Assembly: GCA_964561495.1 (NCBI GenBank) | Contig: CAZLPW010000006.1 | Coordinates: 1-62,867, forward strand | DNA length: 62,867 bases | Direction of reading: 5' to 3' | DNA from: an uncultured bacterium | Lineage (GTDB): Bacteria > Fidelibacterota > Marinisomatia > Marinisomatales > UBA1611 | Part shown: piece by piece, positions 3,995 through 6,293 of the stretch | Layout: every line of letters begins with the position of its first letter | Numbering within the stretch: position 1 is the stretch's first letter | The notes under the pieces: model-generated | Database searches by the model: none | What the model was told of the DNA's origin: nothing | The model's input: the letters and a program-made list of their open reading frames with translations, nothing else | Made by a program: the position numbers and the translations under genes

Positions 3995-5014
3995 ATGGAA
4001 TCTGTCTTTACAGTTGCTCAGCCTTGTTTTCTTGCAAATCAGGTTGAGTCCGTTATTTATAAATATTATGGTTTCAAATGTTTTGCTGAAGATATTTACA
4101 GTGATCGTGATCAAAACTTTTATATTCGAACTCCCGATGATAAAGAGTATATATTTAAAATTTCTAATTTATTGGAAAAAAAGTCTGTAATTATTATGCA
4201 AAACGAGTCTATCAAGTTTATTTTTAGAAAAGACCCCAAATTAATGATCCCATTACTATGTAAATCTATGTTGGGAGATGAAATATTGGAATATCATTAT
4301 AAAGACAATCTGTTTTATATGCGACTATTACATTTTATCCCTGGTAATTTTATAAAGGACCAAAAGAAAAATAAAGATAGTCTTTTTAAAATTGGTTCTT
4401 TTTTAGCGAGGCTTGATAACGCATTAGATGGCTTTGACCATAAAGCAGGTCACAGAAATTTTCCCTGGAATTTATCTCAAAATGGGTTTTTAATTGATTT
4501 TGGTGATGGTCTAAAGAAAAAAAAATGCAGGTCGATTGTTGAATCATTTTTAATAAAAAAAATGGATTATTTAAATGAAAATCATTTTTATTTGAGAAAA
4601 GGAATTATTCATAATGATGGAAATGATCATAATATTATCGCAGATGATTATGGAAATGCTATTGGTATAATTGATTTTGGTGACATGGCATATTCATACA
4701 TAGCTTCAGAGCCTGCGATTGCAATGGCGTATGTCTCTATTGATAGCAAAGATCCTTTCTTAGATATGGCAAGTGTTTTAAAAGGGTTTCATAAGTTTTA
4801 TAAACTATCAGATGCTGAGTTGTGTTTTACAATCTATCTAGTATGCCTCCGTTTATCTATATCAGTCACAATGTCGAGCTATCGTAGCGGACTTTTCCCT
4901 GATAATAAGTATTTGACAATTTCCGAAAATCACGCCTGGAATTTTTTAAAAAAAATGCAAAATGAAAATTTAGAAGATTGGGGCGATAGACTTCTTAATT
5001 ATGCTAAGTCGTAG
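3995..5014 (+). CDS. APH-fold (aminoglycoside phosphotransferase / homoserine kinase II-like) small-molecule kinase; possibly amino-alcohol (hydroxylysine-type) kinase
   Basis: 339 aa. Catalytic loop IIHNDGNDHNII (HxDxxxxN) and metal-binding IIDFGDM. 14-nt overlap with the downstream class-III PLP enzyme. Substrate not determinable from sequence. Confidence 0.6.
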   Translation: MESVFTVAQPCFLANQVESVIYKYYGFKCFAEDIYSDRDQNFYIRTPDDKEYIFKISNLLEKKSVIIMQNESIKFIFRKDPKLMIPLLCKSMLGDEILEYHYKDNLFYMRLLHFIPGNFIKDQKKNKDSLFKIGSFLARLDNALDGFDHKAGHRNFPWNLSQNGFLIDFGDGLKKKKCRSIVESFLIKKMDYLNENHFYLRKGIIHNDGNDHNIIADDYGNAIGIIDFGDMAYSYIASEPAIAMAYVSIDSKDPFLDMASVLKGFHKFYKLSDAELCFTIYLVCLRLSISVTMSSYRSGLFPDNKYLTISENHAWNFLKKMQNENLEDWGDRLLNYAKS

Positions 5015-6293
5015 ATCAATTGAAAAATTGAGGGAAAAGCACATTGCACCCTCTTTTAGTATTTCTTATGATAACCCAATACATATTATTTCTGGTAAAG
5101 GACAGTATCTTTATGATTCAGAAGGGAATGAGTTTCTTGATGCTGTAAACAATATTCAGCATATTGGACATTCTCATCCTAGAGTTTCGGAGGCCATAGA
5201 AAAACAATCAAAAAAACTTAATGTTAATACCAGATATCTTGATGAATTGATAGTCCAATATGCTAAAGATTTGACACAAAAGTTGCCTAAAGGTTTAGAC
5301 GTTTGTTATTTTACTAATTCAGGGAGTGAATCAAATGATCTTGCCCTTCGTATTGTTCGGACACTCTTTAAAAACAAAGAGACTATAGTTTTAGAGGATG
5401 CATACCATGGCCATACTTCAGCGTTAATTGAGGTTAGTCCATATAAGTTTAATGGTTTAGGCGGCTCAGGTTGCCCAGATTTTGTTCATGTTCTATCGCG
5501 GCCAGATCCATACAGAGGTAAATATGTTGGACGGAATTGTTTTAAAGATTATATCAAAGATTTAGATAATATATTATGTCTTCTAAAAAAGAAAAAGAAT
5601 GCTGGCGTTTGCTTTATAGTAGAGCCAATTATGGGTTGCGGGGGCCAAATTGTTTTCCCTCCAGGATTTCTTAGTGCTGCTTTTAAACTTATACGAGAAA
5701 ATGGAGGAATTTGTATAGCCGATGAAGTCCAGATAGGTTTTGGTAGGATGGGCACACACTATTGGGGATATGAAACTGAGAGTGTTGTTCCAGATATAAT
5801 AACTATTGGGAAATCAATGGGTAACGGACATCCTTTATCAGCAGTTGTTACGACCAGAGAAATATCAGACAAATTTAATAATGGAATGGAGTACTTTAAT
5901 TCATTTGGTGGGAATCCAGTTTCATGTGCAGTAGGGAGATCCGTTTTAAAAGTAATTGAGGAAGAAAAATTACAAGAAAATGCACATAAAACAGGTTCCT
6001 ATTTAATTCGATTATTAGAAGATTTAAAAAAAAAACATACAATTATTGGAGATGTTAGGGGGCGTGGTTTATTTGTCGGAATTGAGCTCGTACGTGATCA
6101 TTCTACAAAAGAGCCAGCAGATATTGAATCAAAAAAGTTAATCAACATGATGAAGGAGAAAGGTGTTTTGTTAAGTGTTGATGGTCCTTTTAATAATGTT
6201 ATTAAGTTAAAACCACCACTTGTGTTCAACAAAGAAAACGCTAAATTTTTGGTATATAAGCTGGGCCAAACTCTAGAAGAAATTAAAGAGTAG
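5001..6293 (+). CDS. Class-III aminotransferase-fold PLP enzyme (AGXT2-like; transaminase or phospho-lyase)
   Basis: 430 aa. Motifs [23 protein letters not shown] and [15 protein letters not shown] (PLP lysine). Overlaps the kinase gene upstream. Confidence 0.75.

Follow-up and report, generated by a model that had tools for sequence, protein, structure and literature searches.

The stretch of DNA analysed here, referred to as the window, comprises 62,867 nucleotides (nt) of contig CAZLPW010000006.1 (assembly GCA_964561495.1; positions 1 to 62,867, forward strand) from an uncultured bacterium of the Marinimicrobia. It has a G+C content of 32%, carries nearly all of its long open reading frames (ORFs) on the + strand, and finds its closest relatives among marine metagenome proteins labelled Candidatus Marinimicrobia/Neomarinimicrobiota. 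We focused on a pair of overlapping genes near its 5' end, which encode a predicted small-molecule kinase and a predicted pyridoxal phosphate (PLP)-dependent phospho-lyase (hereafter the kinase and the lyase), and on the genes found beside them:

3995..5014, + strand: APH-fold small-molecule kinase, candidate 5-hydroxylysine kinase (339 amino acids (aa); Pfam APH 47.7 bits)
4604..4684, + strand: kinase catalytic loop IIHNDGNDHNII and metal-binding IIDFGD (motifs read in the translation)
5001..5014, + strand: 14-nt overlap of kinase stop and lyase start (ATG at 5001, kinase stop TAG at 5012-5014)
5001..6293, + strand: class-III-fold PLP enzyme of the ETNPPL/PHYKPL ammoniophospho-lyase clade (430 aa; matches to 6TOR, 5G4I and PRK06148)

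The kinase contains all of the hallmarks of the APH fold, comprising the HxDxxxxN loop in IIHNDGNDHNII (residues 204-215, nt 4604-4639), the DFG-like metal-binding aspartate in IIDFGD (residues 225-230, nt 4667-4684), and the ATP-binding lysine. An alignment of 22 homologues revealed K55, H206, N207, D208, N210, N213 and D227-D230 to be invariant, and because K55, H206, D208, N213 and D227 belong to this set, the kinase looks catalytically competent as judged by its sequence. Together with the Pfam match, these features bear out an earlier sequence-only reading of this DNA, which had recognized the catalytic loop and the IIDFGD site in the ORF. The best NCBIfam model was PRK06148 (profile positions 7-329, 215 bits), and the homoserine kinase model PRK05231 yielded 24.3 bits against a cut-off of 271. 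A phmmer search of the kinase against PDB sequences returned no relative at E 0.01. The AlphaFold2 (AF2) model of the kinase (predicted local distance difference test (pLDDT) 92.7) adopts the APH fold, and Foldseek gave 14-17% identity and a template modelling (TM) score of about 0.7 to 2PPQ, 6EF6 and 4OCU alike, placing the model at roughly equal distance from the 2PPQ 'homoserine kinase', amicoumacin kinase, the aminopropanol kinase 6EF6 and NahK. The kinase did not cluster with true homoserine kinases or with NahK/AmgK, two affiliations that would have spoken against the sequence-only reading, nor does it belong with the aminopropanol kinases. It lacks a signal peptide and is present as a single copy in the genome (2.59 Mb, 99% complete). 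In the Protein Atlas, a bacterial cluster auto-named 'Hydroxylysine kinase' appears at rank 2 for the kinase, an automatic name that provides a weak lead.

The lyase was identified by Pfam as Aminotran_3 (274.6 bits), with the expected motifs at residues 241-251 and 268-282. The PLP lysine K271 (nt 5811-5813, in TIGKSMGNG) and D241 (in ADEVQ) align with their equivalents in 6TOR, in line with the AGXT2-like class-III assignment made from the sequence alone. Compared with all PDB sequences, the top match was human ethanolamine-phosphate phospho-lyase (6TOR; 464.8 bits, E 2.9e-138, residues 3-427), followed by the Arthrobacter phospholyase A1RDF1 (5G4I; 320.3 bits, E 2e-94); the best class-III match outside the phospho-lyases was dialkylglycine decarboxylase (202.5 bits, E 1e-58). 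No transaminase, decarboxylase or racemase of the fold comes as near to the PLP protein in sequence as the characterised phospho-lyases do, and the protein's chemistry is predicted to be that of a phospho-lyase. The suspicion that an apparent 'aminotransferase' here may be a phospho-lyase is thereby strengthened. The protein carries no export signal, and its best NCBIfam model was PRK06148 (profile positions 584-1012, 600 bits). Both proteins of the pair score highest on this one model, which describes a kinase-M23-lyase fusion. Two further genes of the class-III aminotransferase fold lie near the end of the window (56505-57839 and 60516-61775); both are distant from the lyase, and the product of the latter is about 28% identical to it over part of its length.

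The 14-nt overlap, found exactly as the sequence-only reading had placed it and matched by overlaps of 14-17 nt in three relatives (L001, L003 and L004; L numbers denote sampled loci), suggests translational coupling. The two genes are split and overlapping in the window, whereas most other phyla have them fused. Longer frames that include the kinase are found in the phylum of the window as well: those of about 755-800 aa comprise APH + Aminotran_3 in Pfam, and those of about 1010-1075 aa comprise APH + Peptidase_M23 + Aminotran_3. Peptidase_M23 sits between kinase and lyase in the trifunctional loci L074, L075, L076 and L079 and in most Bacteroidota loci, and is absent from the split Marinimicrobia genes. 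The best 150 lyase representatives among 1.8 billion proteins were nearly all bacterial fusions of 750-1100 aa. We then considered 80 loci, and in at least 74 of them the lyase lies 3' of the kinase on the same strand or is fused to it; the set spans Marinimicrobia, Chloroflexota, Desulfobacterota, Acidobacteriota, Gemmatimonadota, Ignavibacteria, Nitrospirota, Asgard archaea and Pseudomonas. The lyase likewise follows the kinase in 33 of the 34 loci of a second sample, taken from the phylum containing Ignavibacterium. Because the two are adjacent or fused at this frequency, their pairing is far beyond chance, and the question raised by the sequence-only reading, whether the pair is conserved or fused elsewhere, can be answered in the affirmative.

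Kinase-lyase proteins were detected in 65 of 301 sampled genomes of the Marinimicrobia phylum, and the kinase, mostly in fused form, in 31 of 401 from the Ignavibacterium-containing phylum. Further examples occur in Chloroflexota, Acidobacteriota, Desulfobacterota, Asgard archaea and green algae. Three proteins of about 890-940 aa (P0295, P0290 and P0293), from the green alga Chloropicon primus and from environmental samples, combine Aminotran_3 and APH domains, and so by their sequences kinase-lyase fusions also appear to be present in eukaryotic algae; a search with a protist homologue returned algal and bacterial proteins only. Four loci in relatives from the window's own family (L043, L050, L052 and L055) retain the kinase alone, L043 with an 80-codon lyase remnant just downstream, and three others (L054, L056 and L077) have kinase and lyase without the glycoside hydrolase (GH) family 2 gene described below, and are followed by pilus/secretin genes. 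Together, these seven loci look like stages in a stepwise loss of the module.

Downstream of the pair, the window carries four further genes that bear on its function; this wider operon, which the sequence-only reading did not take up, tells more than the pair itself:

6302..9475, + strand: exported or membrane-anchored LacZ-type GH2 beta-galactosidase (1057 aa; starts 9 nt past the lyase)
12770..14630, + strand: GH63/MGH1-like (alpha/alpha)6 glycosidase, candidate alpha-glucosidase (Pfam MGH1-like_GH 60 bits)
14627..15664, + strand: Pro_racemase-family protein of the trans-3-hydroxy-L-proline dehydratase type (345 aa; NF045511 the best model)
16704..17633, + strand: ornithine-cyclodeaminase (OCD)/mu-crystallin family protein, candidate delta1-pyrroline-2-carboxylate (Pyr2C) reductase (OCD_Mu_crystall 160.6 bits)

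The GH2 protein scores 1073.7 bits on the equivalog NF052611, above its cut-off of 999, and displays the full five-domain architecture (Glyco_hydro_2_N, Glyco_hydro_2, Glyco_hydro_2_C, LacZ_4 and Bgal_small_N). Its hydrophobic N-terminus is encoded at 6302-6361, and a signal, lipobox or hydrophobic anchor is found in the GH2 of all 26 cluster homologues. Apart from the operon copy, no LacZ-type GH2 was found in the 2.6-Mb genome. We evaluated its linkage to the pair by clustering all ORFs within about 9 kb to either side of 40 kinase matches in the phylum. The order kinase, lyase, GH2 on one strand recurs in 26 loci including the window (kinase identity 36-50%); of the split-form loci in the sample, 31 could be assessed and 23 show it. 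The same-strand gap between lyase and GH2 is 5-90 nt across Marinimicrobia loci. An orthologue of the GH2 at 50% identity or more was found in 35 sampled genomes, 28 of which also have the kinase. A promoter and terminator scan of the operon gave counts not above those of shuffled sequences.

The GH2 is followed in the window by a complete riboflavin operon (ribD, ribE, ribBA, ribH; 9542-12760). Relatives have a Na+ symporter where this operon sits, and the catabolic cluster of the window genome has therefore been rearranged. The listed ORF of the GH63-like gene spans 13011-14630 with a TTG start. Its homology in tblastn begins at 12828, and the frame is open back to about 12770; the upstream stretch (12768-13011) comprises about 80 in-frame homologous codons and a hydrophobic N-terminus without any ATG, GTG or TTG, so that either a rare ATA/ATT start near 12770 is used, or the start codon and signal peptide have been lost. 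A homologue in L040 reaches 151 bits on MGH1-like_GH and additionally matches Trehalase and Glyco_hydro_63. The enzyme is probably exported.

The dehydratase-type protein contains DRSPTGTG at residue 262, with threonine at the second catalytic position, which we take to be the mark of trans-3-hydroxyproline dehydratases as opposed to racemases or epimerases. The motif is conserved in 11 of 12 cluster Pro_racemase proteins, that of the window included; homologues occupy the equivalent cluster at 11 other loci, and the one in L058 scores 358.6 bits on Pfam Pro_racemase. Pyr2C reductase catalyses the second step of 3-hydroxyproline catabolism, and in L081 the lyase is followed directly by an OCD homologue and this in turn by the dehydratase-type gene (order: M24, kinase, lyase, OCD-family, Pro_racemase-family, GH109, symporter). 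Across the Marinimicrobia neighbourhoods, the following gene families recur, all co-directional with the kinase-lyase pair:

Xaa-Pro peptidase (AMP_N + Peptidase_M24): 17 loci, directly upstream
Na+:solute symporter (YidK type, PRK10484, 600 bits): 20 loci
Pro_racemase-family protein (best model trans-3-hydroxy-L-proline dehydratase): 12 loci
GH109 (Glyco_hydro_109_C, 300.6 bits): 15 loci
BNR protein (BNR_2): 4 loci
GH63/MGH1-like glycosidase (PF22422): 3 loci

The GH109 proteins bear a Tat-type RRxFIK signal, and no export signal is seen in the M24 peptidase or the dehydratase-type proteins. Since GH2 and GH109 carry signals, and kinase, lyase, M24 peptidase and dehydratase-type protein carry none, deglycosylation would take place outside the cytoplasm and the reactions on the amino acids within it.

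Two other parts of the window deserve mention. The stretch 20514-23813 encodes a secreted C25-family peptidase of 1099 aa (gingipain type, with propeptide, catalytic and Ig-like domains) that ends in a dockerin domain, an unusual combination; it may degrade protein in partnership with the catabolic genes. At 38486-39793, a cytidylyltransferase-like domain is fused to phosphoenolpyruvate (PEP) mutase within a large polysaccharide-biosynthesis cluster that also includes a DegT aminotransferase, ATP sulfurylase/APS kinase (27978-29657), Poly_export/SLBB (33198-35882) and UDP-GlcNAc 2-epimerase. The PEP mutase fusion and its cluster suggest a surface glycan decorated with phosphonate and perhaps sulfate.

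In other phyla, the architecture of the pair differs. Unbiased clustering of the neighbours across non-Marinimicrobia loci identified a GH63/YgjK-like gene in five loci, GH2 in four, M24 in five, a genuine galactokinase in six (TIGR00131, 317 bits vs a cut-off of 227), a DAO/D-amino-acid-dehydrogenase-like protein in six, a dihydrodipicolinate synthase (DHDPS)-family protein overlapping the fusion in five, and an aldehyde dehydrogenase (ALDH) adjacent to the kinase-lyase on the same strand in six. DHDPS-family, DAO-type and Pro_racemase-family enzymes belong to the families used in bacterial 4-hydroxyproline catabolism. In the 34 loci of the Ignavibacterium-containing phylum, GH2 lies directly 3' of the fusion in L177, L181 and L185; a GH63-like gene adjoins the fusion in L174, L177 and L181, an M24 peptidase follows it in L172, L175, L178 and L179, and a Pro_racemase-family gene is found near it in L182 and L186. 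Among the 80 loci of the first set, the Acidobacteriota locus L153 reads symporter, GH2, fusion. On the basis of these clustered neighbours, galactose-, proline- and hydroxyproline-related genes recur around the pair even where its architecture differs, and no ethanolamine-related gene is recurrent beside it among the clustered neighbours of the sampled loci. The fused Bacteroidota loci L177, L181 and L185 resemble the window in combining GH2 with kinase and lyase and, in part, with the GH63-like gene; the window differs from them in that its kinase and lyase are split, lack M23, and are tied to trans-3-hydroxyproline genes and GH109, with Na+ symporters in place of SusC/D for uptake. An AlaDh_PNT gene in the Chloroflexota-like locus L003 was considered as a saccharopine dehydrogenase and ruled out, being a bona fide alanine dehydrogenase (516 bits).

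We also surveyed the window's own genome for the remainder of a pathway (C numbers denote its contigs). C78 encodes an L-lysine 6-transaminase (TIGR03251, 610 bits vs a cut-off of 521) and, beside it, an L-piperideine-6-carboxylate (P6C) dehydrogenase (NF050084, 745 bits vs a cut-off of 730), with an ornithine-aminotransferase-like gene next to the two. Because the genome encodes P6C dehydrogenase, the predicted lyase product, 2-aminoadipate semialdehyde/P6C, would have a ready sink; the other five of the six ALDHs in the genome are not P6C dehydrogenases. Three additional regions of the genome stand out. In C12 (3063-14100), three class-III aminotransferases alternate with three aldehyde dehydrogenases, two of them aminobutyraldehyde/betaine-aldehyde-dehydrogenase-like and one a methylmalonate-semialdehyde dehydrogenase, which looks like a compact cluster for the catabolism of amines and omega-amino acids. 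An orthologue of the YidK-type symporter in C2 (92829-94086) matches in two reading frames with overlapping ends and is either frameshifted or an assembly error. The GH109 orthologue (C91, 3017-7086) lies beside an SSF-like transporter and a GHMP-kinase-family ORF, which scores 61.8 bits as a galactokinase against the cut-off of 227 and may be an N-acetylgalactosamine (GalNAc)/galactose kinase.

Building on the gene structure, folds and families, fusions and neighbourhoods shown by the analysis, we propose the following pathway. Outside the cytoplasm, the exported GH2 and the probably exported GH63-like alpha-glucosidase would take galactose and glucose off Glc-Gal-O-hydroxylysine, a deglycosylation that would free the 5-hydroxyl group needed by the kinase. 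In the cytoplasm, the APH-fold kinase would phosphorylate the 5-hydroxyl of 5-hydroxy-L-lysine, and the PLP enzyme would eliminate phosphate and ammonia to give 2-aminoadipate semialdehyde (P6C), which the P6C dehydrogenase of the genome could oxidise to 2-aminoadipate, joining the lysine 6-transaminase route. The dehydratase-type and Pyr2C-reductase-type enzymes may turn 3-hydroxyproline into proline. The parts of this proposal differ in strength. That the two proteins form a kinase/phospho-lyase pair acting on an amino alcohol is very probable. Collagen-type 5-hydroxylysine is probably the substrate, a conclusion that we hold with moderate confidence. The full scheme, including deglycosylation of galactosyl-hydroxylysine (Gal-Hyl) and glucosyl-galactosyl-hydroxylysine (Glc-Gal-Hyl) by GH2 and the GH63-like enzyme, is tentative, and we place its chances slightly short of even; the substrate of the pair, the phospho-lyase chemistry of the PLP protein and the role of the glycosidases are what we infer.

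Other substrates for the pair have to be weighed against 5-hydroxylysine. In an ethanolamine route, the kinase would phosphorylate ethanolamine, derived for example from phospholipid head groups, and the lyase would release acetaldehyde, ammonia and phosphate from the resulting phosphoethanolamine. The two nearest solved lyases (464.8 and 320 bits) are indeed phosphoethanolamine phospho-lyases, and an ALDH that is not of the P6C type lies directly beside the kinase-lyase in six loci of other phyla; the candidacy of the ALDH beside the pair in Marinacidobacterales as a P6C dehydrogenase was ruled out, the protein being MdlD-like. However, the PDB comparison is biased, since PHYKPL has no entry in the PDB copy searched, and it does not separate the two specificities. 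The animal homologue of the APH type, HYKK, is reportedly a hydroxylysine kinase and not the partner of ETNPPL. Moreover, the genes that do recur beside the pair are those for Xaa-Pro peptidase, 3- and 4-hydroxyproline-type enzymes, GH2, GH63-like glycosidase and galactokinase, with none for ethanolamine. This context favours 5-hydroxylysine over ethanolamine as the substrate, and we regard the ethanolamine route as unlikely. A role in handling another 1,2-amino alcohol, such as (S)-1-amino-2-propanol, a sphingoid base or an amino sugar, appears distinctly improbable. While 6EF6 and NahK are among the nearest solved kinase folds (TM 0.73) and substrate specificity is unreadable from the sequence here, the kinase is only 14-16% identical to these two and no nearer to them than to other APH kinases, with no PDB relative at the phmmer threshold given above. 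Furthermore, no microcompartment shell gene is present among the annotated neighbours (window 1-29 kb and related loci), and the gene context points to collagen residues. Finally, the public names of the relatives, 'aminotransferase class III' and 'phosphotransferase/RdoA', would suggest an ordinary class-III aminotransferase beside an unrelated phosphotransferase. This we consider highly improbable given the 260-bit gap between the phospho-lyases and the best other class-III enzyme and the pervasive fusion with the kinase; as the sequence-only reading had cautioned, automatic annotation under these names misses the predicted function.

With 5-hydroxylysine as the preferred substrate, the part assigned to the glycosidases is more open to challenge. 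The pair could act on free hydroxylysine or another amino alcohol, with GH2 and the GH63-like protein being unrelated exo-glycosidases held nearby by inherited synteny. Several observations are in keeping with this and weigh against our proposal. The Marinimicrobia loci are kin, so part of the synteny that they share is inherited. Nor are GH2 and the pair always linked: 7 of the 35 genomes with the GH2 orthologue lack the kinase, GH2 is missing beside the kinase and lyase of L054, L056, L077 and L081, and most fused forms have none. Where GH2 does stand beside a fusion, it is no closer to the window GH2 than other GH2 copies in those genomes, and the comparison does not mark the GH2 at the fusions as a distinct, specialised subfamily. 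The GH109, BNR and GH18 genes in the same clusters would equally fit general glycoprotein degradation, with GH2 trimming terminal galactose. In the window, the riboflavin operon parts GH2 from the GH63-like and 3-hydroxyproline genes. The family assignments have their own limits, in that the GH63-like protein has no NCBIfam match, the dehydratase-type protein scores 340.6 bits on NF045511, below the cut-off of 540, and the OCD-type protein reaches 263 bits on NF006379 and 176 bits on NF004793, both below the cut-offs. The window's genome contains no galactokinase above cut-off and, with the query used, no M24 peptidase of the cluster type; the lack of a galactokinase above cut-off and the sole LacZ-type GH2 are, weakly, consistent with a role in unmasking the aglycone. 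Set against the view that the glycosidases are unrelated are the position of GH2, which follows the lyase by 5-90 nt on the same strand across kinases of 36-50% identity, its status as the only LacZ-type GH2 found in the genome, and the recurrence of the GH2/GH63-like pairing, and of galactokinase, with the fused pair in Bacteroidota and Acidobacteriota. On balance, unrelated glycosidases have a small chance of being the correct explanation.

Despite their wide distribution, kinase-lyase proteins carry no annotation beyond 'aminotransferase' and 'phosphotransferase', and their context here provides a specific hypothesis, namely the bacterial use of the Glc-Gal-hydroxylysine and 3-hydroxyproline of collagen. 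Collagen is among the most abundant animal proteins. If the proposal is true, a dedicated pathway for the glycosylated hydroxylysine of collagen would exist in SAR406, an abundant deep-ocean lineage, and in several other phyla, its genes grouped with those for prolidase and for the catabolism of trans-3-hydroxyproline; kinase-(M23)-lyase proteins would gain their first bacterial function, and an enzyme cleaving Gal-Hyl would be identified. To our knowledge, animals excrete Gal-Hyl and do not cleave it. What becomes of collagen in sinking marine particles matters for the carbon and nitrogen that SAR406 cycles in the dark ocean, and a Gal-Hyl beta-galactosidase and a Glc-Gal-Hyl alpha-glucosidase would serve as reagents for studying collagen glycosylation.

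The kinase-lyase pair as such is of a known kind. Veiga-da-Cunha and colleagues reportedly started, in their 2012 work (J Biol Chem 287:7246), from bacterial kinase-lyase fusions of this family; animal ETNPPL is said to pair with choline/ethanolamine kinase, and HYKK to be the hydroxylysine kinase. In PMC5714238 and PMC12138971, Veiga-da-Cunha et al. 2012 is cited as an example of comparative genomics and gene fusion, and PMC8154272, which cites the same work, counts as class-III-fold phospho-lyases only ETNPPL and 'a closely related enzyme'. Full-text literature searches returned no bacterial pathway described for hydroxylysine or glycosyl-hydroxylysine, no paper that deals with hydroxylysine in Marinimicrobia and, within the searchable literature, no characterised enzyme for the Gal-beta-1-O-hydroxylysine linkage; for the bacterial kinase-lyase members, they returned no experimental function beyond the turnover of phosphoethanolamine by one Arthrobacter lyase. 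We likewise found no description of a split-gene SAR406 operon with exported GH2, GH63-like and 3-hydroxyproline genes.

Several known systems nonetheless resemble the window in part. Human ETNPPL (6TOR) and Arthrobacter aurescens A1RDF1 (5G4I/5G4J) match the lyase over its full length and share its PLP lysine and aspartate; both act on phosphoethanolamine, whereas the context in the window points to a hydroxylysine-type substrate. The NCBIfam families PRK06148 and PRK06149 comprise kinase-(Peptidase_M23)-lyase fusions of about 970-1015 aa named 'hypothetical protein' or 'aminotransferase'. The window proteins match their N- and C-terminal domains but are encoded by two genes, without M23, and their scores (215 and 600 bits) fall below the full-length cut-offs of 1128 and 973 bits, marking them as a split variant and not as members of the fused family. 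In the mycobacterial aminoacetone microcompartment, the aminopropanol kinase 6EF6 and a class-III-like phospho-lyase carry out the same kind of two-step chemistry with the same folds; in the window, by contrast, the kinase is only 14% identical to 6EF6, there are no nearby shell proteins, and the gene context is a different one. A further parallel in predicted chemistry is offered by vertebrate HYKK (AGPHD1) and PHYKPL (AGXT2L2), which, as in the window, combine an APH-type kinase with a phosphate- and ammonia-eliminating class-III PLP enzyme, and whose predicted product, 2-aminoadipate semialdehyde, enters lysine catabolism as we propose here. Unlike their animal counterparts, which show no such linkage, the bacterial genes overlap and share an operon with GH2, GH63-like and 3-hydroxyproline genes.

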